Shown here: piece after piece, positions 3,532 to 37,400 of the stretch
Numbering within the stretch: the first letter of the stretch is position 1
Layout of the letters: each line of letters begins with the position of its first letter
DNA from: a virus
Lineage: Duplodnaviria; Heunggongvirae; Uroviricota; Caudoviricetes; Crassvirales
IMG/VR virus record: IMGVR_UViG_3300042473_001002
Length of the DNA stretch: 37,530 bases
Reading direction: 5' to 3' (one strand)
Notes under the pieces: model-generated
Seen by the model: the letters and a program-made list of their open reading frames with translations, nothing else
What the model was told of the DNA's origin: nothing
Databases searched by the model: none
Position numbers and translations under genes: made by a program

Positions 3532-3831
3532 TTAAAGTATGTTTTTAATTGTGAAAATAATAAAAGGAATTGCAAAGGTCGCAATTGCATCAAAGAAATT
3601 TCCCGTGCCTTTTTTTCTAAACTCGGATAAAAACTCGACAAAAAAAGCGATAATAACCACGCTTGCAAAAGCAATATCTTCGGGAATAAAAAAAGATAAT
3701 CCTAAGTAAATAACAGTTCCGAAAAAAGCGTGTAAAATGTATTCGGCATATTTCAAGTCCTTAAACCATTCGGGCATTAAATTGAAAATAGTTATCTTAA
3801 AATCGTTGATTTGTTCTAGTGTTTCTTTCAT
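3532..3831 (-). CDS. Small multi-TM membrane protein, possible holin
   Basis: Three hydrophobic segments in 99 aa with a basic loop (RKKG). Confidence 0.5.
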   Translation of the reverse strand: MKETLEQINDFKITIFNLMPEWFKDLKYAEYILHAFFGTVIYLGLSFFIPEDIAFASVVIIAFFVEFLSEFRKKGTGNFFDAIATFAIPFIIFTIKNIL

Positions 3832-3905
3832 TGTGGTTTGTTTAGTGGCATTTTGCCAATGGATATTAAGTATTAAAATAACCCTCTAATTAAAGAGGGT
3901 ATTTG

Positions 3906-4361
3906 TTAGATTTCTGAAATTTCGAAGTAAGAACCCTTTAAAACACTTTCGCTTCCAAAAACATTTTCGAATCCAATTGCAGGGATTAAAAATGAAATTC
4001 CATCACTTTTAAAAGTTCCTTCGATTAAAACACGTCCTTTTAAATCGTCATTTGACGATGTGTAGTTTAACAATGTTCTTTCAAATGATTCTCCGTTTGT
4101 CATTTGAGAATTACGCCCACTTGTTTCGCCTCCTAAGTTACTAATAGCAACATATTGGATGTTTGAAATTTTGTCTAAATCTCCAAGCATTCCGAAATAC
4201 AAATTACCTTCTGACGGGTGTAAATCTTTTAAACAAATAATTGCTTTAAATTTATAAAGCTTGCAAACTCCTGTTTTAAATCCGTTTTCTGGACTAAAAA
4301 TAGGCTGTAAATTCGGTGTGTCTTGAAGAAGTTTTTCTTCGTTTTGATAAATAAAATCCAT
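3906..4361 (-). CDS. Stand-alone paralog of the tail-fibre C-terminal domain
   Basis: Aligns by eye to the C-terminus of 4380..6044 (YxFK, F.MLGD, IEGTF, LIPAI, V.xG). Confidence 0.7.
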   Translation of the reverse strand: MDFIYQNEEKLLQDTPNLQPIFSPENGFKTGVCKLYKFKAIICLKDLHPSEGNLYFGMLGDLDKISNIQYVAISNLGGETSGRNSQMTNGESFERTLLNYTSSNDDLKGRVLIEGTFKSDGISFLIPAIGFENVFGSESVLKGSYFEISEI

Positions 4362-4379
4362 TTTATAAATAATTTAAAA

Positions 4380-6044
4380 TTACACGATTGTTGAACTTGT
4401 TACGATTGGAATAACAGTAAAAGAAGTTCCTCTTGATACTGTATCAATTCCTGACATTTGTTCTATATTAATTGCAGGAATGAGGTATCCATTATCAGTT
4501 GCTGTGAAAGTTCCTTCAATTACTGCACTTGCTTTCCCTGTGTTGTTGATAGTGTTGTTTATCAATAAGTCTGAAAAAGAAGTTCCTACACGTGCGTCGA
4601 CTAAACCTTGATAGTCTGGTTCGCCTATATCATTGTCAAAAACACTTAACGATTGATATCTTACATTTGATGTGTTTGCAACGTCCCCCAACATTGCAAA
4701 AGATAATTGAGTGGTATTAAGTAAGCCTTCTAAAAAAAGCAATAATTTAAACTCATAAGTAATTCCGCTTGTTATTGGGAAGCTTCCATTACCTGAGCTA
4801 CCAACATTAAATATTTTTTGTGTTGTGCCACCAGAATCGACTAAAGAATAATTTGTGTTTTGCAACATTACTGTTTTTAGCAAATCGCTTTTCTTGGCAT
4901 ATTCAACACTACTCCAGTCCGTCCCATCATAAAATCTGTAAACCAAAGCACCAGCTGTATAACCTACTCCGCCTATTGTGGTTGTTCCGCCAATAACGTG
5001 AACTATGTAGCCTTTGTTTGCTTCAGGCGTTGGGTCGGTAACGGTTAACGTTCCATTTGTGGAATAAGCTACTAAATTAACCGCTGTGAAATCTGATGTT
5101 TGGATGTTGGCGAATGGTAGATCTGATAGATAAGCCAAAGGATTCCAAATAATTCCATTGTGTACGTTTGGCCTTGCGTTTTCATCAAAAGCAAAAAAAC
5201 CTTTTACAGCATTTGTAATATTACTTAATGCCCTTGAAACAATTTTAAAACCTCCGTTTTTATAACTCGCAAACGAAGTCAATCTAAATCCATCTTGACC
5301 AATTCCTATACTAAATGCTAAATCGTTAGCCTCGTAATTTATTTGGCTTATTGGAGATATATTTTCGTTATAAGTTCCAACCGCAGTTTCAGAAAAACTA
5401 TTTGAAAAAACACCAAAACCGCTTGCATTTGAGTAATTTCCTATAGCTGCTCCTGCGCTGCTTGACGTTGAAAAATCCCCTACAGAAACCCCATTTCCAG
5501 ATGAAAAACTATTTTCTCCACTAGCGGCGCCGTCCACGCTAAGGTTTACACTAAAATTACCTTCATCAGTATAAGAAACGTCTTTTCTATGTATTGCACC
5601 ATTTTCCTCTTGCGTAAAAACAATTTCAGTATTTTCCGCAATAACATTAACACTCCAATATTCTACTCCTCCAACTACTTCAATTAATTTTAAAATAGCT
5701 AGTCCGTTTTTTGGGATTAAAGGAGAGCCGATAAATTCAATGTCTGTATCGAATATAACCTCTCTCGGTGTAGGCGAAGCGTTTTTAATCCAAAATTCCG
5801 TGTTAGCTGTAAATCCTAAACTTAAAACGGGGTCAAACTCCGTTGTGATTGTTAGAAATTTATCATCGTCGGATTGTAAAATTGTGTACGGGTCGGTATC
5901 TGTTATAATTTTAACTTCCCTTTTTTGGAATCCAATTATAGGATTAATAGGATCAGTATTATCAACATCTTGACCACTTACCGATTGAACGCCACTTATT
6001 CCTCCTGATGAATTTGTTCCAAGCTGTATTTTTATTTTAGCCAT
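4380..6044 (-). CDS. Tail fibre / receptor-binding protein
   Basis: Gly/Ser/Ala-rich repeats resembling YadA-head repeats (SFSSGNG, AIGNYSNASG, SETAVGTYN); modular; within the fibre cluster. Confidence 0.7.
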   Translation of the reverse strand: MAKIKIQLGTNSSGGISGVQSVSGQDVDNTDPINPIIGFQKREVKIITDTDPYTILQSDDDKFLTITTEFDPVLSLGFTANTEFWIKNASPTPREVIFDTDIEFIGSPLIPKNGLAILKLIEVVGGVEYWSVNVIAENTEIVFTQEENGAIHRKDVSYTDEGNFSVNLSVDGAASGENSFSSGNGVSVGDFSTSSSAGAAIGNYSNASGFGVFSNSFSETAVGTYNENISPISQINYEANDLAFSIGIGQDGFRLTSFASYKNGGFKIVSRALSNITNAVKGFFAFDENARPNVHNGIIWNPLAYLSDLPFANIQTSDFTAVNLVAYSTNGTLTVTDPTPEANKGYIVHVIGGTTTIGGVGYTAGALVYRFYDGTDWSSVEYAKKSDLLKTVMLQNTNYSLVDSGGTTQKIFNVGSSGNGSFPITSGITYEFKLLLFLEGLLNTTQLSFAMLGDVANTSNVRYQSLSVFDNDIGEPDYQGLVDARVGTSFSDLLINNTINNTGKASAVIEGTFTATDNGYLIPAINIEQMSGIDTVSRGTSFTVIPIVTSSTIV

Positions 6045-8029: not shown

Positions 8030-8755
8030 TTATTCAAATTGATTTTCAAATTGTGTTTCAAAAATTTTAAAATTTTCTTCTTGATCTCCAATTGTTACAT
8101 TGTTGTTTATTCTTTTTATTTTTATAAATATATTTCCAAAAGAATATATATTTTTAGATACAAATAAAGTATAATTATATTCTGGAATATTTACAATATC
8201 AAATTGATTTGTAATAATGTTTCCTAATATATCTTTAATTTCATAATTAATAGTATTTGAATTGTTATCAATAAAACAAATTCTACCTATATTATTGTAA
8301 GATATTGTTTTTCCTAATTCAAAACTTTTATAGGTATCAAAATCTTTATCTAATAAAAAACTAGGTTGAGTTAAAGAATATATATCTTGAATTGTTGTTA
8401 AATAATTTTCTTCTTGCCAATAATAAATATAATAATTATTATTGATTGGTATCTGACCACAATCAGTTGATTCTGATTGAGTAAATGTTTCTTTTATATT
8501 TGAATGTAAAGGTTTTAATATTTTATCTTTACAAATATTTTCAGATTTATGTGAAATTTTATTATATAAAGAAACTAAATCTTTTACATTTTTACTATTT
8601 ATTTCTAATCCACAATTATAAATTAGATTATATATTATGTCAATATAATAAATTTCTAAAGGTTTTAGTTCTCCATATATTTTAGATCTTTTATAATCTT
8701 TATTTAAAGAACTTATTATTGTAGATATATGTTTTTTTTCATTAATATATATCAT
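8030..8755 (-). CDS. Hypothetical protein (structural module)
   Basis: 241 aa ORF co-oriented and tightly spaced. Confidence 0.55.
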   Translation of the reverse strand: MIYINEKKHISTIISSLNKDYKRSKIYGELKPLEIYYIDIIYNLIYNCGLEINSKNVKDLVSLYNKISHKSENICKDKILKPLHSNIKETFTQSESTDCGQIPINNNYYIYYWQEENYLTTIQDIYSLTQPSFLLDKDFDTYKSFELGKTISYNNIGRICFIDNNSNTINYEIKDILGNIITNQFDIVNIPEYNYTLFVSKNIYSFGNIFIKIKRINNNVTIGDQEENFKIFETQFENQFE

Positions 8756-27845: not shown

Positions 27846-28078
27846 AACCATAGTCACGTAGTGAATATTGATTATGGTTACAACATCTGTGGGGGTAAAT
27901 GCACACAAACCTTTTCTACGGAAAAGATAATTTGGGAGTGATTGCTGTAAGTAGAAATACTTGGGGTTAGGTGAAGCCACAGCGTTATTATAGGTAAAGA
28001 TAGTTAGTGGAGTCGTAAGACAGTGATGCGTTTGAAGCTAGATTACTATAATACAAACAGTTACGATAAGACTGTTAA
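27846..28078 (+). ncRNA. Candidate structured ncRNA of unknown family
   Basis: ORF-free and GC-elevated; six stems with C(UACG)G, GAAA and GUAA tetraloops; followed by a terminator. Confidence 0.55.
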
Positions 28079-28085
28079 CAAACAT

Positions 28086-28119
28086 ATATAAGGATTCTTC
28101 GGAGTCCTTATATTTTTTT
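28086..28119 (+). terminator. Terminator hairpin, copy 3
   Basis: ATATAAGGATTC-TTCG-GAGTCCTTATAT plus T-run; UUCG loop. Confidence 0.85.
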
Positions 28120-28164
28120 GATTAAAAGAAACCTATTGTGTCATTTCTCAATAAGTCACAATAC

Positions 28165-28305
28165 TACCTATATATTAAGGTATAAATAATTATGAGTTTA
28201 AATTAACATTCTAGTTGATTTAATGAACCTTTGAGACCTTGTTACAATTCTAGTAATGAGTCAGTAAATCTTATAATTATTTATACCTATATATTAAGGT
28301 ATAAA
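28165..28305. repeat. Two identical 22-bp sites TACCTATATATTAAGGTATAAA
   Basis: At 28165-28186 and 28284-28305; each is palindromic around an 8-bp ATATATTA core. Confidence 0.85.
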
Positions 28306-28395
28306 ATTCCAATTAAATATTAGTATTAATATTAAATCTTTAATCTTGACATTTTAATATTTAATCAATATTATTACTAAAACTTTAATTGGAAT
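28306..28395. repeat. Long AT-rich imperfect inverted repeat
   Basis: ATTCCAATTAAA...TTTAATTGGAAT with inner AATATTAAA/TTTAATATT arms. Confidence 0.7.
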
Positions 28396-28607
28396 ATTAA
28401 TGTATCATTCTAACTTCCCAAGGGTTAGCAGTTGTAACCAAACCAGTGCGATGATGACACGTTGAGTTACAACTGAATACAGAGGGTATTTATAATCTAT
28501 TAATGGAAGGTTGTTGTTGACAAATAGGATAGGATGTATGATTCTGACTTAGACATTAGATCTAGTTAACCCTAAGTTGAATAAAACAACACAAATATTT
28601 ATAATTT

Positions 28608-28678
28608 AAACTCTATCCAATTGCAGGTGAGTAGCAAAATGCATATACAATAGACAAGGTGCAACCTTGTAGAGTTTA
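28608..28678 (+). ncRNA. tRNA-sized element with acceptor stem and T-like arm
   Basis: AAACTCT/AGAGTTT 7-bp stem and ACAAG-GTGCAAC-CTTGT 5-bp/7-nt arm; D and anticodon arms not resolvable. Confidence 0.35.
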
Positions 28679-28831
28679 TTTTATTTAGTGTTGATGTGAG
28701 CTTATACCTAAACCTCACTTATCATCACATCTAATCACACTCAAATAATCCAATCATATCAATACAATAGCTTTTATATCACATTAAAACATATTCAAAC
28801 ATATCCTAATTATAACTAATTACTAACTAAA

Positions 28832-29011
28832 ATGCTACAAATTATGTTAAAATTATTAAAATATATACCAATTTTAGGTCTAATTATTGTATTTATTTAC
28901 ATTGATAACATTAAAATTAGCCCAAATGTAAATAATTTATTAGACTATTTTGGGTCTGCAATATTTCAAACAATTTCAATATTAATTATAATGAAATTAT
29001 TATTCTTTTAA
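28832..29011 (+). CDS. 59-aa two-TM protein (not in ORF track)
   Basis: MLQIMLKLLKYIPILGLIIVFIYID...; AACTAA-A-rich start context. Confidence 0.55.
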   Translation: MLQIMLKLLKYIPILGLIIVFIYIDNIKISPNVNNLLDYFGSAIFQTISILIIMKLLFF

Positions 29012-29109
29012 ATACACGAACATATCAGACTATAGTGAGCTGAATAGTATAAGGATGGTAGCCTTGAGAATATCTAAAACAAATTATTAACTGACTAAAT
29101 AACAAAATT

Positions 29110-29310
29110 ATGAATTATCCAAAAGCAACTAAATTAAAAAGTAAAGGAGCTAAAATATTCAAATCTAATGCTGGTTTAAAACATAATCAATTTGTAACTT
29201 TACATAATATTGTAGATACATGGTATATAATTCTAGATTCAGACAATTTAGAAAATTATCCAATTGGACAAATTGAACAATATTCTGATTATGAATTAGA
29301 AGAATTTTAA
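29110..29310 (+). CDS. Hypothetical protein
   Basis: aaaattATG start context. Confidence 0.6.
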   Translation: MNYPKATKLKSKGAKIFKSNAGLKHNQFVTLHNIVDTWYIILDSDNLENYPIGQIEQYSDYELEEF

Positions 29311-29571
29311 CAACACTTTAGTCAGTCAATTACAGGTAATGCTGGGTTGACTGATTACAAAATTAAATCACTTGCTTGAAGATAAACAATAATATAAAAT
29401 AAGCCATTAGGCAACATTAGGTTAGAGTCCTAGTTAAAATAGTATTATAGACTGTACTAGAAGTCGTGTTTATTGTAAAGATATTAAATAAAGAATTGAC
29501 TAAGTTGCATGACAACCAGTAGGCTTTTAAATAATATTCCACTAGAATTTGGACAAGTGACTTTAATATAT

Positions 29572-29658
29572 GGGGTAGTAGTTTAAACAGGTATAGAACG
29601 CTTAGGGTAATGTCAATAAATCCAGCGAGATGTGTGGAACCCATCTCCACCTACTCCA
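29572..29658 (+). ncRNA. tRNA-like element with aberrant anticodon and T arms
   Basis: GGGGTAG/CTACTCC acceptor, TA, GTTT/GAAC D-stem with GG loop, GAGATG/CATCTC arm. Confidence 0.5.
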
Positions 29659-29694
29659 CAATTAAAATAATTAACAATCTTAAAAACAAATGTC

Positions 29695-30387
29695 ATGGAA
29701 CAGTTTAAAAGAGCAAAGGTAATAATGTTACCAACAAATAATAAATCATTACTACATATTAATTATTCAAAACTACAATTAAATAAATTTGAACAATTAG
29801 ATGTTAATAATCAAAATTTATATTTTATTTCAAATGATGAAATAAAAGAAGGTGATTGGTTTATTCATCATTCACATGGAATTACAACACTGTTAAAAGC
29901 TATTGAAATAAATAATAGAATATTTGACAATCAAGGAACTTCATGTAGTAAAGATTATTGTAAAAAAATCATAGCTACAACAGATACTTCATTAAAAGTT
30001 AATTCTGAAGTAAATAATAATAATTCAATTAAATTTTTATTACCTCAACCATCACAACAATTTATTGAAAAATATATTGAATCTTATAATAAAAGTGATG
30101 TAGGTTCTAATAATTATACTGTTACTGATGTATTAGTTGAGTATGAAAAATGCTCTCACAAAACTTGTAATAATGGTTGTGATTCACAAATGTGTAGAAA
30201 TCAACATTATAAACTTAAAGTAAATCCTAAAGACAATACTATTACAATTAAAAAATTAAAAGATAGTTGGAATAGAGAAGAATATGAAATAGGTTTAAGA
30301 AAATCATTTAATGCAGGAATGAATTATGCAGAAGGAGGACACTTCGGTATTCCTGATGAAAATAAATGGATTGAACAAAATTTATAA
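29695..30387 (+). CDS. Conserved Bacteroidota-phage hypothetical protein
   Basis: EIKEGDW, CKKIIATTD, LPQPSQQFIEKY, VLVEYE modules recur in such phages, as recalled. Confidence 0.65.
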   Translation: MEQFKRAKVIMLPTNNKSLLHINYSKLQLNKFEQLDVNNQNLYFISNDEIKEGDWFIHHSHGITTLLKAIEINNRIFDNQGTSCSKDYCKKIIATTDTSLKVNSEVNNNNSIKFLLPQPSQQFIEKYIESYNKSDVGSNNYTVTDVLVEYEKCSHKTCNNGCDSQMCRNQHYKLKVNPKDNTITIKKLKDSWNREEYEIGLRKSFNAGMNYAEGGHFGIPDENKWIEQNL

Positions 30388-30402
30388 AAACAATTAAAAA
30401 TT

Positions 30403-30597
30403 ATGAAAACATTAAAATACATTTTAGGAGTAATATTAGGATTAATATGTCTAATATTTATTGAAGGATTGATGACACTTGGTAATGCCTTTAAATTTGA
30501 ACAATATAACGTATTTGGATATTTTATTCAAACATTATTTGTAATAGCTACAATATGTATATCAATTATTGTAACTGAAAAAGAAATTAACTCATAA
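30403..30597 (+). CDS. Two-TM membrane protein
   Basis: Hydrophobic helices. Confidence 0.6.
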   Translation: MKTLKYILGVILGLICLIFIEGLMTLGNAFKFEQYNVFGYFIQTLFVIATICISIIVTEKEINS

Positions 30598-30680
30598 ATA
30601 AATTAAAACTATGTGACACATTATTGTGGAAAGCTGAAACGCAAAAACACATAGTTTTATTTTAATTAACTAACAAAATT

Positions 30681-31142
30681 ATGAAAAAACTATTATTATT
30701 GTTAATGTTCACAATAGTTGGACATTCTCAAATTAACAAAACATTAAATTTCAATTTCTTAGCAGATAAAACTGCACATTTAATAACTGAAATTGAAGCA
30801 ATTGAAAAAAATATTTACATTAAACAATCATTAGAATATGCTCCAATGATTGAAGGTGGATATTTTGCAACAGGTACAGCTTTAGGTTATTCTAAAGAAT
30901 TAGGATTGTTTAAAAATTATAGAATATCTATTGCACCTAAACTACAATTTATTGTACGTGGTGGTAATGTATATCCCTCATATGGTGGAGAAATTGGTGT
31001 AGATAAAACGTTTTGGTCTGGATTAATACTAGGTATTAGAGGAACATATGATTATAGAACTGATTTTGAATATTGGGGAGATAAATATTCAGCAGATTGG
31101 CAACCTAGTTTATTTGTTAAAATAGGTTGGAAATTAAACTAA
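30681..31142 (+). CDS. Outer-membrane beta-barrel protein with signal peptide
   Basis: MKKLLLLLMFTIVGHSQ signal peptide, amphipathic strands, terminal LFVKIGWKLN. Confidence 0.7.
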   Translation: MKKLLLLLMFTIVGHSQINKTLNFNFLADKTAHLITEIEAIEKNIYIKQSLEYAPMIEGGYFATGTALGYSKELGLFKNYRISIAPKLQFIVRGGNVYPSYGGEIGVDKTFWSGLILGIRGTYDYRTDFEYWGDKYSADWQPSLFVKIGWKLN

Positions 31143-31245
31143 TATATTTATTGCGAGTAAATATAATAATTCATCAGCCCTTTGTGGTCCCACCTAAGTG
31201 ATGTATGACTCGATAGTGGTGTAGAGTCTTTTTAAATTAAATATT

Positions 31246-31356
31246 ATGAAACTATCAAATAAATTACAATTTAAACTATTAGTATCAACAGCTATATTAT
31301 TTAAATTATCATTAATATTAATTATAGCTTGTTGTATTAAATATTTAATAACTTAA
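31246..31356 (+). CDS. 36-aa single-TM peptide (not in ORF track)
   Basis: MKLSNKLQFKLLVSTAILFKLSLILIIACCIKYLIT. Confidence 0.4.
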   Translation: MKLSNKLQFKLLVSTAILFKLSLILIIACCIKYLIT

Positions 31357-31359
31357 ATT

Positions 31360-31626
31360 ATGAGTGTACAAGATAAAGTAAGAGCTATTCATGGAATAGA
31401 AAATTATTTAAGAAAATTTAAAATTGATGTTAATATTAATAAAGATAAACACATTAATCAAATATTTTTAGATTTTGCTAAATCTATGAATTGGGAACAT
31501 GAATTTGTTAAACAAAATAAACCTAATTATAAAGGTTCTAATAAACCTTCATGGTCTAATGCTTTATTAATACAAGCTAATTTTAAAGATTTTACTAACT
31601 ATATTACTAAAAATTATGAAAAATAA
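31360..31626 (+). CDS. Hypothetical protein
   Basis: ttATG context. Confidence 0.6.
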   Translation: MSVQDKVRAIHGIENYLRKFKIDVNINKDKHINQIFLDFAKSMNWEHEFVKQNKPNYKGSNKPSWSNALLIQANFKDFTNYITKNYEK

Positions 31627-31939
31627 TACAAAATTACAACAACAAGGTTATTCAGGTGTTAAAGTAACATCAATGTTAAATGCTTGTTTATCAAATGAAA
31701 TTAAAGTACATTTGAGATTAGTTCAATTAGATAATTTATCTAAGATTAATAACAAATATTTCAAAACTAAATTAATTTCCAAACCAGAAATGACTCTTCT
31801 GTGGAATATTTATTGGAATTTTGTATTAAATGATTTTAGATTTGATGATAAATCTAAAGAATATACTGTTGTTAAATCAATAGTTAAAACTGAACCAAAA
31901 CATATTGGTATGATTATGTTTGAAGAAATGAATAAATAA
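31616..31939 (+). CDS. Hypothetical protein
   Basis: Overlaps the upstream gene. Confidence 0.6.
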   Translation: MKNNTKLQQQGYSGVKVTSMLNACLSNEIKVHLRLVQLDNLSKINNKYFKTKLISKPEMTLLWNIYWNFVLNDFRFDDKSKEYTVVKSIVKTEPKHIGMIMFEEMNK

Positions 31940-31964
31940 ATTAACTAAATTAAATATTAAAATT

Positions 31965-32363
31965 ATGAAAAATCAAGAAATTACACCAGGGGATACTATT
32001 GTTTACAACTTAGTAAACAATGTTAAAGTAGTTCAACCTATTAACAAACAAGCTTTTGTTAATGAAAAAGGAAGACAACGTACTCATCAAGACATGATCA
32101 ACTTGTTTTCAGATACAGCATTTGATAAAAGAGCTGAATCTTTCACATTAAATTCTGAATCAGTTGTAAATGAAGTTCAAACATTTGAGCCAGAATTTAC
32201 AGCTAAAGAAAGATACAATGCTAAAAAAGACTATAAAGATTTTAAAAAAGAAAATCCAAATGGTTTTAATAATTCATTGAAACAATTCAGAGCTATGGTA
32301 ACTGACAAATTTGCTAACACAAAAATGCGTGTTAGAATGAATGTGACTGTTATTGGAGTATAA
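31965..32363 (+). CDS. Hypothetical protein with high-expression codon bias
   Basis: aaaattATG; GCT/AAC/TTC codons. Confidence 0.65.
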   Translation: MKNQEITPGDTIVYNLVNNVKVVQPINKQAFVNEKGRQRTHQDMINLFSDTAFDKRAESFTLNSESVVNEVQTFEPEFTAKERYNAKKDYKDFKKENPNGFNNSLKQFRAMVTDKFANTKMRVRMNVTVIGV

Positions 32364-32519
32364 ATTATAATAAAGTGTTGCCACTATTACGATAAGTACT
32401 TTACAAAATTGCAATTTTGTTTTATAGGAAATATATCTAGCATAGAGATTACTAACACGCAATCTGGTTAAAGTCAGATCAACACTTTATTTTATTAACT
32501 AATTAAAATTAAAAAAATT

Positions 32520-32810
32520 ATGACAAATACAATATTATTAGTAAATTCTACATTACTATCTATTTTATGGATTGTAGTAGCTGTAGCATTAGGAATTGTT
32601 TGTTATATGTTAAGAACAGCTCCTGAACTAGATGAAAATGAAAATATTAAAGATAATTCAATTCATCAAAATATCCAATCTATTAATAGAATGGGATATA
32701 AACCTGAAGAAGATGATGAATTAGATGGTTATCACAATGCTGAAAAACCACATGTTCAACAAGGATCTTATATTAATGAACATATGAAATCTGTAATTGA
32801 TAAAACTTAA
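32520..32810 (+). CDS. Single-TM membrane protein
   Basis: N-terminal TM segment, acidic tail. Confidence 0.6.
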   Translation: MTNTILLVNSTLLSILWIVVAVALGIVCYMLRTAPELDENENIKDNSIHQNIQSINRMGYKPEEDDELDGYHNAEKPHVQQGSYINEHMKSVIDKT

Positions 32811-33006
32811 TATTATGTTATATCTAATAGCGTGTTTTTGCATATACGGATTTGATTTACATTGGTCTTGGTATATTTGGTCATTGATAATATATTTAAT
32901 ACATATGTCAAATAAAAATAAATAAATATTATGAGTAATAAAAACAAGTGTTTCTTTCATTAAAAACTGCTGGTGGATTTATATTTACTAAAAAACTTCC
33001 ATTATT

Positions 33007-33222
33007 ATGATACAATTAGGAAATTTAATAGTATTATGTATAATTATTATTATTTATATAATATGGACTTATTATTCAATTAAAGATATAATTAGTATAA
33101 ATAATAAAATATCAAATAGTATATCAGATAGTACAGGTGTTTGGTTTATGTTAACATGTCTTATACTTCTTATATCATTTTTTATAACAATAAATTATTT
33201 AAATAAATATACAATACCATAG
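33007..33222 (+). CDS. Two-TM membrane protein
   Basis: Hydrophobic helices. Confidence 0.6.
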   Translation: MIQLGNLIVLCIIIIIYIIWTYYSIKDIISINNKISNSISDSTGVWFMLTCLILLISFFITINYLNKYTIP

Positions 33223-33541
33223 TATAATTCAAAAAGGCATTAGGAGAATTATATTATCAAACCTTATCACAGGATGCCTGAAATACCCGAAACTATGTTG
33301 CTAACATAGTAGTAACGCTGTATGATAAGGTTATTTGAAAAAACAAAACCATCTAATCCTTAAAATGGCTAGGAGTGAAATTATATGTACTGTTAGCAGT
33401 TAATTATAATGGAACTTGTGAGAGTTAATAGTATATAAAATTATAAATCCGTTTATGTTTATTGTTAACATTCAAGAAATATATAATAAAATACAATATT
33501 TAACGCCTTCACTTAGATGGTTTTTTATTAATAAATAAATT

Positions 33542-33790
33542 ATGAAAATAATAAATTTCAGGTTATATAATAAACAAAAGATTTTTATTTGTATTAAATT
33601 TAAAAATAATTATTCTCAAGTTTATAGTCTAACAGACCAGATTGAAAGATATAATTTAAATACTAAAAAAAAGATATTAAATCATATTTTAAAACTAAAG
33701 ATTAAAGATACTAAATATATTTGTCTATATAAAATATATAATTCAGATAAATATAATAAAAAATGGATTGAATCAATTCAAACTAATTAA
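33542..33790 (+). CDS. Basic hypothetical protein
   Basis: ttATG context. Confidence 0.45.
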   Translation: MKIINFRLYNKQKIFICIKFKNNYSQVYSLTDQIERYNLNTKKKILNHILKLKIKDTKYICLYKIYNSDKYNKKWIESIQTN

Positions 33791-33806
33791 AAATAAATTA
33801 AAAATT

Positions 33807-34472
33807 ATGAAATTAAAATTATTATTTGTTGCATTAATGACTATGACTCTGTCTTTTGCACAAGAAAAACAAGTTGATAAAATAATAGACAACTCTAAAG
33901 ATGGAGTTTCTACTGTTTACAATGATGGTAAAGAAGCTGTAAGTACAGTATATAAAGATGTTAAATCAATGTCACCTAAAGTAGAAGAAGCTGTTAAATC
34001 ATTAGCAGAACAATTTAAAACTACTACAAATGCATTGTGGAATATATTAGTTAAACAACAATTAGTTTGGTCTATTTGTTTTTTAATATTAACATTAACA
34101 TCTATATTTAATTGGTGGTTATTTTATAAACGTAATTTAAATACCAATATAAAAGATAGTGATTATGTAGTTGGTGAAAAAGATATGATTGGAGATGTTC
34201 CAAATCCACAATATGATAGATATTATGCAGATCGTACAGGTGATATTAGATCCAAACCTTTTATACCAGGAATTATTGGTGGTAAAGAAAATATTTTATT
34301 ATTTAAAGGAGATGTTAAATTACAAAACAATTGGTTTAAATATTTACATTTAGTTATTTGTATAACATTATCTGTATTTAGTTTTTATCATTTTAGTGAT
34401 ATGTTAACTGGATTCTTTAATCCTGAATATGGTGCATTACAAACAATTATGAAAGTAGCAACTAAATTATAA
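33807..34472 (+). CDS. Signal-peptide membrane protein (ATG at 33807)
   Basis: MKLKLLFVALMTMTLSFAQ signal peptide and two further TM segments. Confidence 0.65.
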   Translation: MKLKLLFVALMTMTLSFAQEKQVDKIIDNSKDGVSTVYNDGKEAVSTVYKDVKSMSPKVEEAVKSLAEQFKTTTNALWNILVKQQLVWSICFLILTLTSIFNWWLFYKRNLNTNIKDSDYVVGEKDMIGDVPNPQYDRYYADRTGDIRSKPFIPGIIGGKENILLFKGDVKLQNNWFKYLHLVICITLSVFSFYHFSDMLTGFFNPEYGALQTIMKVATKL

Positions 34473-34476
34473 TATT

Positions 34477-34689
34477 ATGACAATATTATTAATTATTGGT
34501 ATTTTACTAATTCTTGTAGCAATTAGTGTTTTAATTAGTTCATTTATGATTGCATGTAAAAATGATTTTAATGAAGGACAAACTATAGGTTTCGTTTTAA
34601 TTACAATTGTACTTACTTTAATTTTTGGAGCTTATGGTATAATGCTAACAAATCAATTTATACAAATAATATTAAACAATTACGAATAA
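34477..34689 (+). CDS. Two-TM membrane protein
   Basis: Hydrophobic helices. Confidence 0.6.
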   Translation: MTILLIIGILLILVAISVLISSFMIACKNDFNEGQTIGFVLITIVLTLIFGAYGIMLTNQFIQIILNNYE

Positions 34690-34883
34690 AATGAGTAAAA
34701 ATTCAAATAAATCAAAATTAAATCAACTAATGAGTTGGTTAGAAACTAGTAAAGTAATTAAACCAATTATTACTTTATACAATTAGAATGGTAGTAAACT
34801 ACCACATAAAGTATTGGGACCTGAACAAAAGTTCTTGAAGAAATGTGCTATAATAAGTTTTCCATGCACAATATTTTAATAAA

Positions 34884-34952
34884 GATGAGATAGTTTAGCG
34901 TTTAAAACACTACTTTGTTTGTAGTACATGGGTTGGAATCCCATAATCATCT
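34884..34952 (+). tRNA. Degenerate tRNA (nominal Thr-UGU) / tRNA-like RNA
   Basis: Cloverleaf: GATGA/TCATC acceptor with two mismatches, GTTT/AAAC, ACTAC-TTTGTTT-GTAGT, ATGGG-TTGGAAT-CCCAT. Confidence 0.5.
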
Positions 34953-35068
34953 TGTCGTAGCTTTATAGAGAGGCTTTAGCAAAATAATCTCTTGTAATGA
35001 GACCAATAGGACATATTCAAATTATATGTCCTTATTGAGTCTTAAATTAACTAATTAATAATAAAATT

Positions 35069-35338
35069 ATGAAAAATGAAGAATTACGTAGATTAAAATC
35101 TGCATTAATACAATATAATATTTGTTTATTATTACCATTTATGAAAATAATTTTTAAATGTAGTTATGGCTTATGTAGTCATTTTGATTTTAATTTACCT
35201 AAAGACTTATCAAAATTAAATCCAAATACTTATGAAGAGTATATGTTAAATGATTATTGGTTTAAAGTGGGTGAATTAAAACCTAGAATTAAATTAATTA
35301 AACAAGCAATTATTAATACTAAAGCTAAATATAAATAA
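35069..35338 (+). CDS. Hypothetical protein
   Basis: YWF...ELKPRIKLIKQAI C-terminal motif; ttATG context. Confidence 0.6.
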   Translation: MKNEELRRLKSALIQYNICLLLPFMKIIFKCSYGLCSHFDFNLPKDLSKLNPNTYEEYMLNDYWFKVGELKPRIKLIKQAIINTKAKYK

Positions 35339-35449
35339 TGAACAACTACTACAAATTAATATTTAGTAATGGAGAAATTGTATATCAACATATATTTAAT
35401 CGTATTGATTTAAATAATTGTTTTAAAAATAACTAAAAACTAAAAAATT

Positions 35450-35680
35450 ATGAACACAATTCAAATAATATTAGTATATATAATAATAGTAATTACTTTT
35501 TATTATATTAATAGAAGATTATTAATAGATAATCTAAGTAGAGGTAATACTTATAACTGGGATATGGTAACTGTAAATATGTGCTGTAGTTTAATAATAT
35601 TTCCATCTGTAATGTATTGGATAATTTTGATAATATTTAAATTACCAAAGTTTCCAAAACGACCACCTAAATGGTTGTAA
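35450..35680 (+). CDS. Two-TM membrane protein
   Basis: Hydrophobic helices; KPPKWL-like C-terminus. Confidence 0.6.
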   Translation: MNTIQIILVYIIIVITFYYINRRLLIDNLSRGNTYNWDMVTVNMCCSLIIFPSVMYWIILIIFKLPKFPKRPPKWL

Positions 35681-35691
35681 CTAATTAAGAT

Positions 35692-35765
35692 CAGTGTTGA
35701 GCTTTATGGTAAGCGATCCGACAGGATGTTGGATAGTGAAATCAGTTCGATTCTGATAACACTGA
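35692..35765 (+). tRNA. tRNA-like RNA with non-canonical anticodon arm (isotype undetermined)
   Basis: CAGTGTT/AACACTG, GCTT-TATGGT-AAGC, ATCCGA-CAGGATG-TTGGAT, ATCAG-TTCGATT-CTGAT. Confidence 0.65.
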
Positions 35766-35806
35766 CAAATCAATTTCATAGTTTGATTTAGTTAGTTAGT
35801 TTTTAG

Positions 35807-35918
35807 ATATGGGTGAAATAATCCGTTAAGGATAGGTATAATATTAATAAGTTCGAGTCTTAGTCTGGAAACCGTAATCAGGTCGGTCCAGATATTATTA
35901 TGTTAAAGTAACCCATAT
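35807..35918 (+). ncRNA. Candidate multibranch ncRNA with a T-loop hairpin
   Basis: ATATGGGT/ACCCATAT closing stem; ATCC/GGAT, TAAG-TTCGAGT-CTTA, TCTGG..ACCG/CGGT..CCAGA. Confidence 0.5.
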
Positions 35919-35975
35919 TTATTTTAAATAACTATAAATTATGAATATAAAATAAACTAATAAATAATAAAAATT

Positions 35976-37400
35976 ATGAATAAAAATGAATTAAAAGAAG
36001 GAGAGATTTATGTTTATCAAGGAAATTATATAAATAAAATAGGTACAGCATTAACACCATTAAATAGTCAATCTATTATTATAAATTATATTTCTATCAA
36101 TAGCAATATATATCATAATGAAACTAAATCAGGAGCTTCAAATGGTAGTAACGATATTAGATTAGCAACTCCAGAAGAAAAACATTGGTTATTAGAATGT
36201 ATCAGATTAGATAAATTTATATCTAAAGAAGAAGCTATAAAAACATTTGTGCCTGAGTATGTTGAATGTATTCATAATAAAGGTACAATAGGTTCAAAAT
36301 TAGAATTAAATAAAATTTATAAAGTTAATTTAAAAAAAACAGTTATTGATACTTTATATTTAGAAGATTTTAAAACTGGTATATATTGTGGATTAACTCC
36401 TAATGAAACTACAAAATATGACCAATATTCAGGATTCAAACCATCAACAAAAAAAGCTTATGATGCTCAATTTGTTAAACCTGTTAAAGAAGTAATTATT
36501 CCTAAGAAATTTGATATTTTATCAGTATATTCTAAAATAAGTGGTACTATTTTAGAACTACAAAAAGATGGTTATTATAGAAATATTAAAACTAATAATT
36601 CTGCATATTTAAAACCCTTAGATATAGTTAAAAAAGATTCTTTATATAAAATTAATTCTGTTATCAACGAAGAAGGTAATATATTTATGCTTGGTGATAT
36701 GATTACTCCTTGCAGTAGTAATAGTCACAATAAAGGTAAATCATTTAAAATTATTAGATTTAGACTAAATAATGATAAAACTATGATTTGTGCTATTACT
36801 GATACACATAATCCATATGGAATCGGTATTGATAAAATTGAACATTTTATTGAAAAAGAATTATCACCTATTCAATTAGCAAATATTCAACATCCTAAAT
36901 TAGCTATTCTTTATGAAAAAGTTGTTATAGCTCAAAGTCATGCTGATCAATTAAAATTAAAACAAGCTGGAATTGATTCTATAGTTATACCTAATGAAAC
37001 TTTATTAGAAAAAGCTAAAAGATTATATCCTGTTGGAACTAAATTTAAATGTATTTATCAAAGAAATAATTCTATTAATGAAATTTATCAAGTTATTGAA
37101 ATAGCATCACAAAAATCATTATTGTCAGATATAAAAGTTAAAACAAATAACCCTAAAGGATTTTGGAAAAATATTTATGATAGTTCTTTAAATCAATGGG
37201 CTGAAATTATTGAAGATAAACCTAAAGTTGGTGATAAATTTGAATTTATAGACGGTCATTGGAGAAAAGATATTAATGATATTAAAGTTATATCTAGAAT
37301 TTTTGAAGAAAGTGTTGCTTTTAATATTAGACATCATTATGATACTGAATTTATTTCAGGTGGTACAGTTTTACTTAAAAATATCAAAATAATTAAATAA
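35976..37400 (+). CDS. Mosaic hypothetical protein built from recurrent phage modules
   Basis: RLATPEEKHWLLEC, LLEKAKRLYPVGTKFK and several short SH3-like beta modules. Confidence 0.65.
   Translation: MNKNELKEGEIYVYQGNYINKIGTALTPLNSQSIIINYISINSNIYHNETKSGASNGSNDIRLATPEEKHWLLECIRLDKFISKEEAIKTFVPEYVECIHNKGTIGSKLELNKIYKVNLKKTVIDTLYLEDFKTGIYCGLTPNETTKYDQYSGFKPSTKKAYDAQFVKPVKEVIIPKKFDILSVYSKISGTILELQKDGYYRNIKTNNSAYLKPLDIVKKDSLYKINSVINEEGNIFMLGDMITPCSSNSHNKGKSFKIIRFRLNNDKTMICAITDTHNPYGIGIDKIEHFIEKELSPIQLANIQHPKLAILYEKVVIAQSHADQLKLKQAGIDSIVIPNETLLEKAKRLYPVGTKFKCIYQRNNSINEIYQVIEIASQKSLLSDIKVKTNNPKGFWKNIYDSSLNQWAEIIEDKPKVGDKFEFIDGHWRKDINDIKVISRIFEESVAFNIRHHYDTEFISGGTVLLKNIKIIK

Follow-up and report, generated by a model that had tools for sequence, protein, structure and literature searches.

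Two non-decoding tRNA-like RNAs in the early region of a freshwater crAss-like phage

Six RNA structures among the early genes of a crAss-like phage

Few known phages are as abundant as the crAss-like phages, yet most of their early regions, which are rich in noncoding RNA, await characterization. Here we describe six RNA structures in a stretch of phage DNA 37,530 nucleotides (nt) long, IMG/VR virus record IMGVR_UViG_3300042473_001002, which we call the window. All six are found on the + strand between + strand open reading frames (ORFs), at or near positions 28608, 29572, 32370, 34884, 35692, and 35807. A first-pass annotation of this DNA had joined them into a possible dispersed system of transfer RNA (tRNA) mimics, composed of at least three cloverleafs and of fragments with only an acceptor/T-arm half or T-loop, and had proposed that they might serve as decoys for host anticodon nucleases or as processing tags. 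Two of these structures, element A (34884–34953) and element B (35692–35766), proved to be solid. They are best read as tRNA-derived RNAs of the early region that have kept the top half and the overall L-shape of a tRNA and have lost the capacity to decode. Selection on A is evident from covariation and selection on B from invariance, whereas the loss of decoding is apparent from the anatomy of their loops. The third cloverleaf, element C (29572–29658), is doubtful.

The window has a G+C content of ~25%. Genes for the large terminase, portal, and major head proteins of the crAss type lie in its minus-strand half (PHROGs), and the major head/capsid protein shares 63% identity with that of Cellulophaga phage phi14:2 and 46% with those of gut crAss-like phages. 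Because these head proteins are of the crAss type and the sequence is present in lake-water metagenome runs, the window belongs to an uncultured freshwater member of Crassvirales. None of the runs listed as containing this phage is an RNA run, and four runs marked as possible RNA are probably DNA and contain contigs of relatives only. The flagged elements occupy a + strand block of small genes that is the counterpart of the early region of phi14:2. Recoding of stop codons is unlikely because the ORFs of the window are intact under code 11. A scan for promoters and terminators was uninformative in this AT-rich DNA (106 found versus 94 expected).

Relatives were collected by using proteins encoded near the elements as queries. 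The 474-amino-acid (aa) protein encoded just downstream (35976–37400) led to loci L001, L002, and L003 and to 22 more distant metagenome loci. L001, which is part of a complete 102.9-kb IMG/VR genome, is closely syntenic with the window and encodes a 474-aa protein that is 51% identical; the far end of the same genome (L040) was used as the counterpart of window positions 27–32 kb. Two other neighbor proteins, of 76 and 89 aa, recovered near-identical copies of this phage (L065–L073), a sister lineage (L063, L064, and L074–L078) whose 76-aa protein is 76% identical to that of the window, and L079, which is ~90% identical overall. Searches of 50,697 phage records with positions 28000–36000 (megablast) and with the A locus (blastn) gave no match, and tblastn with the 474-aa protein gave none in the phage collection.

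Each detector recognizes one element

ARAGORN at its default setting reports one match in the window, at 35692–35766, which is element B labeled as tRNA-Ser(gga). The same setting produced 0 calls on 100 dinucleotide shuffles of the 10.5-kb region. The sole tRNA match in the window obtained with Rfam/Infernal is element A at 34884–34952, with a score of 31.9 bits (gathering threshold 29; E-value 0.0012–0.0056). Neither program sees the match of the other. ARAGORN misses A, and Infernal with the tRNA model RF00005 leaves B unreported even at E < 10 on a 301-nt stretch. Element C likewise has no match at E < 10 on a short stretch and drew no call on the + strand from either detector. Because ARAGORN sees only B and Infernal only A, routine annotation will miss such elements or mislabel them, as in the serine assignment given to B.

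Relaxing the ARAGORN threshold yielded 18–125 calls scattered across coding DNA, which we treat as noise, and the ps80 call “tRNA-Leu(aag) 35801–35873” was discarded for this reason. No introns were found in the window by ARAGORN -i. Reverse-strand tRNAs were excluded because T and D loops occur on the + strand only.

The anatomy reported in the first-pass annotation holds for the two solid cloverleafs. In A and B alike, the acceptor, D, and T stems are formed, whereas a canonical anticodon loop is found in neither. The loop specified by RF00005 has 7 nt with U33 and purine-37 on a stem of 5 base pairs (bp), and A, B, and C all depart from it. The corresponding loop of B can be read as CAGGAUG (A33, U37), and that of A is UUUGUUU (U37) on a stem of 4 bp. 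CCA is not encoded in any of the elements, and A-CAA directly follows both B and C.

Element A is the core of a conserved noncoding locus

Element A (34884–34953, + strand) is supported by its Rfam score, by orthologs, and by covariation. Its acceptor has a 5-bp core extended by two non-Watson–Crick layers, its D stem has 4 bp, and its T stem has 5 bp and the loop TTGGAAT; U8 and A14 are present. Rfam identifies orthologs in L079 (32.9 bits), L001 (30.4 bits), and L003 (33.6 bits), and a covariance model built for A, termed R1, adds another in L042. The arms were assigned manually, and the assignment was verified on the five sequences (window, L079, L001, L003, and L042). The acceptor core, D stem, and T stem together comprise 14 pairs, every one of which is a standard pair in every sequence, and double changes have occurred at six of them: acceptor pairs 2 (A-U/G-C), 4 (G-C/A-U), and 5 (A-U/U.G), D-stem pair 3 (U-A/C-G), and T-stem pairs 1 (A-U/G-C/U-A) and 3 (G-C/A-U).

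The fourth arm of A is always a short hairpin with a loop of 3–7 nt whose sequence changes between lineages. It reads CUAC-UUUGUUU-GUAG in the window, UGUA-UUUA-UACA in L001, UCUAC-UAAA-GUAGA in L003, and CUAC-UAA-GUAG in L042. Because the anticodon loop is missing in every lineage, the truncated arm is an old and maintained design rather than a recent lesion. The lineages that conserve A have a 474-aa neighbor protein that is only 32–51% identical, and between the window and L079 element A is 99% identical versus 75% for the 96 nt upstream. When R1 was run across 22 loci, it matched the known A orthologs, L042, and canonical tRNAs only. It revealed no A ortholog in phi14:2, and the exact D-arm pattern of A was found in IMG/VR only in L001 and in chance matches.

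Conserved hairpins flank A on both sides. Upstream on the + strand are two covarying hairpins (34823–34869), GAAC-AAAA-GTTC at 34823–34834 and GTGC...GCAC at 34845–34869, the latter with the conserved loop (A)TAATAAGTTTTCC. Their stems are replaced in compensatory fashion by AGAC/GTCT and GTTGGA/TCCAAC in L079, by GTTCCT/AGGAAC in L001, and by GAGC/GCTC and ACCAA/TTGGT in L042. Downstream on the same strand (34967–35043) are hairpin hp2 (34967–34992; AGAGA/TCTCT) and the long hairpin hp3 (34999–35043). The hp2 and hp3 stretch is 100% identical to L079 and 84% identical to L001, and its stems covary in L003 and L042 (ATCGA/TCGAT; GGGTAT/ATACCC). Element A is the core of this conserved multi-hairpin noncoding locus of ~250 nt. 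A small ORF inside hp3 was dropped because it is unconserved.

Two further observations concern the surroundings of A. A possible 31-codon ORF (MSKNSNKSKLNQLMSWLETSKVIKPIITLYN) at 34691–34787, which includes a perfect 10-bp hairpin, has DNA that is 96–97% identical to L001 and L079, far above the neighboring genes. This segment could be a micro-protein gene or part of the A-locus RNA. In L001, the DNA directly downstream of element A carries a diversity-generating retroelement (3541–5175) that is absent from the window. It comprises a reverse transcriptase ORF (4225–5175; YCDD motif), an A-rich template repeat at ~4040–4120, and a variable repeat at the 3′ end of the ORF at 3541–4035.

Element B is invariant in a slot used by decoding tRNAs

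Element B (35692–35766, + strand) is a cloverleaf with a closed anticodon arm. Its minimum-energy fold is this cloverleaf (z -2.8 versus shuffles), in which the acceptor stem is a perfect 7 bp, the D stem has 4 bp and a GG loop, and the T stem has 5 bp and the loop TTCGATT. The anticodon arm, AUCCGAC-AGGAU-GUUGGAU, forms a stem of 7–8 bp that leaves a loop of 3–5 nt. All 21 stem pairs are intact, and departures from tRNA rules occur only at the unpaired positions G8, U14, A33, and U37. Neutral decay would produce the opposite pattern.

B has been found at 16 loci, always with the identical sequence. Between the window and L063, B matches at 75 of 75 positions, whereas identity in the preceding 76-aa ORF is 85% at the nucleotide level and 76% at the protein level. 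After B, the spacer is 95% identical, the terminator insert 38%, the leader of the next gene 98%, and the first 300 nt of that gene 58%. From these comparisons, B is at least as constrained as the surrounding regulatory DNA. The element begins 11 nt after a stop codon, at the 3′ end of a unit of small genes, and is followed by 40 nt and a terminator. We dropped a small ORF within B because it is unconserved.

In relatives the same slot, bounded by the conserved flanks ...AAATGGTTGTAACTAATTAA and CAAA..AATTTCATA, holds a canonical tRNA unrelated in sequence to B. These occupants are Leu(UAA) in L001 and L002, Asn(GUU) in L003, Pro(UGG) in L042, Met(CAU) in L056, and Arg(UCU) in L062. The flanks (window 35681–35691 and 35767–35790; L001 5424–5545) are conserved and the occupants (B, Leu, Asn, Pro, Met, and Arg) are unrelated to one another, which points to a cassette-like exchange of tRNA genes. 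Pattern scans found no canonical relative or parent of B. An exact pattern of its T arm and acceptor had no match, and a gapped pattern returned three unrelated Firmicutes matches in reference genomes and none in IMG/VR.

Element C resembles a tRNA gene in decay

Element C (29572–29658, + strand) can be drawn as a degenerate tRNA-like four-way junction, in which the anticodon arm is enlarged and the T arm aberrant, and its fold is no better than that of shuffled sequence (z -0.44 and -0.56). Its 5′ half is tRNA-like, with U8, A14, and GG, and it has no TTC loop; an anticodon loop of ~11 nt sits on a bulged stem. C is absent from the genome of L001 (G001), where its flanks are rearranged. In L079, the slot between the conserved flanks holds a different tRNA-like element, C′ (Rfam 38.2 bits), that is ~50–60% identical to C. 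C′ has a canonical T arm and a 6-nt anticodon loop that is one base short, with U-ACG-GA after a U run, and it looks like a tRNA-Arg(ACG) with a single-base deletion. Given its degenerate T and anticodon arms, fast evolution, and absence from the L001 genome, C is probably a decaying tRNA gene.

A trailer of the form N73-CA(A/C) is common to B, C, C′, the canonical tRNAs in the slots of relatives, and the transfer-messenger RNA (tmRNA) of L003, but is not found in A. This shared trailer suggests one 3′ maturation route for B, C, and C′, such that B and C may be matured, now or formerly, like the real tRNAs of the phage, with C74 encoded and the rest added.

The acceptor of C, GGGGUAG/CUACUCC-A-C, has the G3.U70 pair and A73 of the tRNA-Ala/tmRNA type, like the tmRNAs of L003, L051, and phi14:2. 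C has neither a tag reading frame nor pseudoknots, and no tmRNA (RF00023 or RF04321) was found in the window by ARAGORN -m or Rfam. An apparent synteny of C with tmRNA genes was set aside because the downstream ORFs are nonhomologous, which leaves a loose positional parallel with L003.

One-piece tmRNA genes occur in the early region of related crAss-like phages (L003 3741–4104, L050 8–386, and L051 3099–3439) and are detected there by both ARAGORN and Rfam; none was found in the complete genome of L001. In phi14:2 (L083, NC_021806.1), ARAGORN identifies a tmRNA at 4031–4500 with the tag GSSVQKLAMVA, and RF00023 matches there with 46.0 bits (E-value 2.6e-16), one bit below the gathering threshold. 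This gene is not among the listed features of the record. It is located within the g005–g006 gap, which Drobysheva et al. report to yield a highly abundant early long noncoding RNA of unknown function (bioRxiv 10.1101/2020.03.07.982082).

The remaining structures are hairpins of other kinds

The structures at 28608, 32370, and 35807 were first taken for tRNA halves that keep an acceptor/T-arm or T-loop, but all three are non-tRNA hairpins. The first (28606–28690, + strand) is a separate conserved RNA motif with nothing tRNA-like about it. In the window it has the closing stem AAACTCTA/TAGAGTTT, the strand TCCAATTGCAGG, an insert, the hairpin CAAGG-TGCAA-CCTTG, and a T-run. Across relatives, the motif is defined by a covarying closing stem AAACTCTNA/TNAGAGTTT, that same strand, a variable insert of 25–80 nt, an invariant hairpin AAGG-YGCAA-CCTT, and the T-run. 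Seven copies are present in five lineages: window 28606–28690, L040 4931–5043, L003 2678–2803, L053 8052–8153, and three in the distant relative L062 (1189–1306, 1475–1592, and 5313–5409). The loop is a 5-nt UGCAA in every copy, which is not the loop of a T-loop minihelix. It is complementary to an upstream UUGCA, and this complementarity suggests a candidate pseudoknot. No Rfam family matches the motif.

The second structure (32372–32496, + strand) is a branched terminator-type hairpin with the closing stem AAAGTGTTG/CAACACTTT, an inner hairpin ATCTG...CAGAT, and a T-run. Its stems are conserved. The inner loop has 8 nt in the window (GTTAAAGT) and in L001 (GTTTGAAT) and 13 nt in L067 and L079, and because loop length is not conserved among close relatives we rejected a T-loop minihelix. 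The hairpin also carries an insert of ~80 nt that is private to the window phage and missing in relatives. The third structure (35807–35918, + strand) is a terminator stem, ATATGGGT/ACCCATAT followed by TTTATTTT, around a variable 96-nt insert with a TTCGAGT hairpin. The insert is 38% identical to that of L063 and is thus unrelated, whereas stem and flanks are 95–98% identical; L001 has a plain terminator at this position. The resemblance of the TTCGAGT hairpin to a T arm is therefore fortuitous, since it falls within the unconserved insert.

The insert at 35803–35906 is polymorphic, being unrelated in L063, absent in L001, and skipped in contigs of some wastewater relatives. A closing stem and T-run around variable content is the common pattern at 28608, 32370, 35807, 30598, and 33346–33525, and in this group of phages insertions seem to be favored in terminator loops. 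A noncoding stretch of ~200 nt at 33335–33535, enclosed by AACCATCTAA/TTAGATGGTT and a T-run, is 89% identical to L001 and 97% identical to L067, versus ~70% for nearby coding DNA, and is a candidate conserved noncoding RNA. At 28395–28480 (L040 ~8259–8365), a 43-nt block is 95% identical to the genome of L001, where its position is rearranged. It is followed by a 10-bp hairpin, CAGTTGTAAC/GTTACAACTG versus CTGTTATAAT/ATTACAACAG, with two compensatory pairs, and then by the conserved sequence AATACAGAGGGTA.

The six structures go back to three or four origins that are unrelated to one another, and they evolve in very different ways. They do not constitute one coordinated decoy system.

A proposed role for elements A and B as processing handles

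Several enzymes, including RNase P, RNase Z, the CCA-adding enzyme, and T-arm modifiers, read the shape of a tRNA rather than its anticodon. We tentatively favor the view that A and B are non-decoding tRNA mimics that engage the first three of these in the host. Both elements would be transcribed within + strand early transcripts. Host tRNA-maturation enzymes would then recognize them, with RNase P acting on the 5′ side and RNase Z, or 3′ trimming and CCA addition, acting on the 3′ side. The resulting cuts would separate the flanking messenger or hairpin RNAs and free a stable small tRNA-like RNA. The place of B between a stop codon and a terminator, the place of A between covarying hairpins, and the sharing of one slot by tRNAs and a mimic all fit such a processing role.

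The tRNA genes of phages are usually explained either by codon supply or by escape from tRNA-cleaving defenses. Neither explanation accounts for full-length tRNA shapes that are conserved yet unable to decode, and such shapes may represent a third use of the tRNA fold by phages, of which a handle for processing enzymes would be the simplest. Because A and B are short and well defined, they are open to testing in vitro with RNase P, RNase Z, and the CCA-adding enzyme.

Transcription of the early region has been studied in phi14:2, where a virion RNA polymerase transcribes the early genes and no promoter motif is recognizable (bioRxiv 10.1101/2020.03.07.982082). Two long early intergenic regions of that phage are transcribed above most genes and remain abundant throughout infection, and their function was stated to be unknown (bioRxiv 10.1101/2020.03.07.982082).

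Several observations weigh against processing handles. Element A lacks G18/G19 and has G at position 56, its acceptor layers 6-67 and 7-66 are G.A/A.A, and four unpaired bases precede its D stem. With these elbow bases missing and the acceptor irregular, there is no assurance that either RNase P or RNase Z would recognize it. Moreover, the discriminator of A varies (U, U, C, A), its 3′ trailer is unconserved, and it has no CAA trailer. Element B shows zero sequence variation and hence provides no covariation support for its fold. Its invariance could be due in part to a recombination tract, since neighboring leader sequences are also 95–98% identical. A former decoder kept for some other reason fits the B slot equally well, because this slot normally holds decoding tRNAs. 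Finally, ordinary hairpin terminators already separate most genes in this region.

A more elaborate version of the processing scheme is improbable. The A locus (~34790–35045) might be a modular RNA factory that freshwater crAss-like phages have conserved, in which an anticodon-less tRNA-shaped module recruits host RNase P and RNase Z to free the flanking covarying hairpins as small RNAs, making it a bacterial-virus counterpart of the herpesvirus tRNA-microRNA units. Element B would then be a purpose-built mimic with a closed anticodon arm, which builds up in an uncharged, CCA-ended form and titrates a host tRNA-binding factor early in infection.

Alternative explanations

Elements A and B, or one of them, might instead be decoys or sponges, that is, stable uncharged mimics that soak up a host factor that binds the elbow or acceptor. 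Candidate targets include a tRNA-targeting defense nuclease, a tRNA-modifying or processing enzyme, and a sensor of uncharged tRNA. A shape under selection without decoding capacity would suit this role, as would the canonical elbow of B (G18G19 D-loop and TTCGATT T-loop) and an early-region location appropriate for host takeover, and phage tRNAs have been proposed to counter tRNA-depleting defenses (PMC10264068). We nevertheless consider a sponge unlikely. Each genome has a single copy of each element, scans with Pfam and PHROGs show no partner or defense-related gene adjoining either one, and A has no canonical elbow bases. The narrower proposal of the first-pass annotation, a decoy for anticodon nucleases, fits poorly. 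VapC, PrrC, and colicins D and E5 act on anticodon loops (PMC10264068), and such a decoy should keep the loop, which is exactly the part that A and B have lost. Tags for tRNA processing appear to suit the data better than a decoy of this type.

It is also doubtful that the tRNA-like elements are nonfunctional remnants in slots that are hot spots of tRNA gene gain, loss, and decay. The first-pass annotation had read these shapes as mimics rather than products of random decay, while conceding that canonical tRNAs at the same loci in relatives, with mutations spread evenly over all arms, would suggest simple pseudogenes. This pattern is seen in part: canonical tRNAs do occupy the B slot, and the C slot of L079 holds a nearly canonical one that resembles tRNA-Arg(ACG) with one base deleted. 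Decay is a good description of C itself, which is degenerate in two arms, evolves rapidly, and is missing from the L001 genome. It fails for A, whose truncated form is common to five lineages with compensatory substitutions. It is unlikely for B, which is invariant while its flanking genes have diverged: it shows 0 of 75 changes versus 15% in adjacent coding DNA, retains 21 of 21 pairs, and has a loop that is closed rather than scrambled.

Another reading, a genuine alternative to which we give a low probability, makes A a single domain within a longer RNA of regulatory or structural function that spans ~34691–35045 and includes the nearly invariant 31-codon stretch. Its cloverleaf would be a scaffold or protein-binding module, and the apparent half elements would be ordinary branched terminators. 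This proposal accounts for the covariation of hairpins on both sides of A, for conservation of hp2 and hp3 equal to that of A, and for the high identity of 34691–34787 (96–97% to L001 and L079 versus ~70% for nearby coding DNA). The closing stem and T-run found at 28608, 32370, 35807, 30598, and 33346–33525 agree with it as well. However, the Rfam tRNA threshold is exceeded by A in four lineages, which would be hard to reach by convergence, and the A locus matches no known family.

Lastly, it is very improbable that B or C is still aminoacylated and used outside decoding, as an aminoacyl donor or tmRNA-like rescue factor: the alanine/tmRNA identity of the C acceptor (G3.U70 and A73, like the tmRNA ends of L003, L051, and phi14:2), the tmRNA genes of relatives in the same early region rich in noncoding RNA, and the canonical elbow and C74-initiated trailer of B speak for it, but C has no tag frame or pseudoknots and is poorly conserved, neither detector finds a tmRNA in the window, and the B acceptor (C1-G72, G3-C70, A73) matches no acceptor-only identity set that we could name.

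Comparison with known tRNA-like RNAs

The mascRNA of MALAT1 and the tRNA-microRNA units of murine gammaherpesvirus 68 each join a tRNA-like module with a reduced anticodon arm to other structured RNA, and cuts at the module by RNase P and RNase Z release the neighboring RNAs. Element A, with hairpins on both sides, has the same layout. These systems are eukaryotic or herpesviral and depend on RNA polymerase III or nuclear processing, and they have no sequence relationship to A.

The tRNA-like domain of tmRNA (RF00023), which also exists in a reduced mitochondrial form in jakobids (PMC3590771), shares with element C the GGGG...CUCCA-C acceptor, the G3.U70 pair, and A73. The tag reading frame, pseudoknot, and P2 helix of tmRNA are all missing from C, which has a tRNA-type D arm rather than the D-analogue of tmRNA.

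Canonical phage tRNAs (RF00005; PMC10264068) share the slot, strand, 3′ trailer, and general cloverleaf with the elements described here, and real tRNAs are found exactly at the site of B in relatives. A, B, and C differ from them in having no 7-nt loop with U33 and purine-37, B by G8 and U14, and A by the loss of G18G19. Altered anticodon loops are known among phage tRNAs (PMC10264068), but those changes preserve decoding, whereas the changes in A, B, and C do not.

Among these systems, the t-elements of plant mitochondria (Hanic-Joyce 1990; Forner et al. 2007, PMC1920247) are likewise tRNA-derived, noncanonical cloverleafs that sit beside protein genes in polycistronic units, as A and B do; A, B, and C all have the t-element arrangement of lying on the + strand between + strand ORFs. 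In plant mitochondria, RNase P and RNase Z accept such cloverleafs as substrates, and the cloverleafs define where messenger RNAs end. Once cut out, a t-element can remain as a stable RNA to which non-encoded C and A residues are added (PMC1920247). In both the t-elements and the phage slot, canonical tRNAs and tRNA-like RNAs can take equivalent positions. The t-element motif GGTTCRANYCC is only approximated in the phage, by CAGTTCGATTCTG in B and GGGTTGGAATCCC in A. Unlike t-elements, A and B keep all four arms and have an anticodon arm that is a closed hairpin. Furthermore, t-elements are organellar and their cleavage is established, whereas A and B come from a bacteriophage and their cleavage is a prediction.

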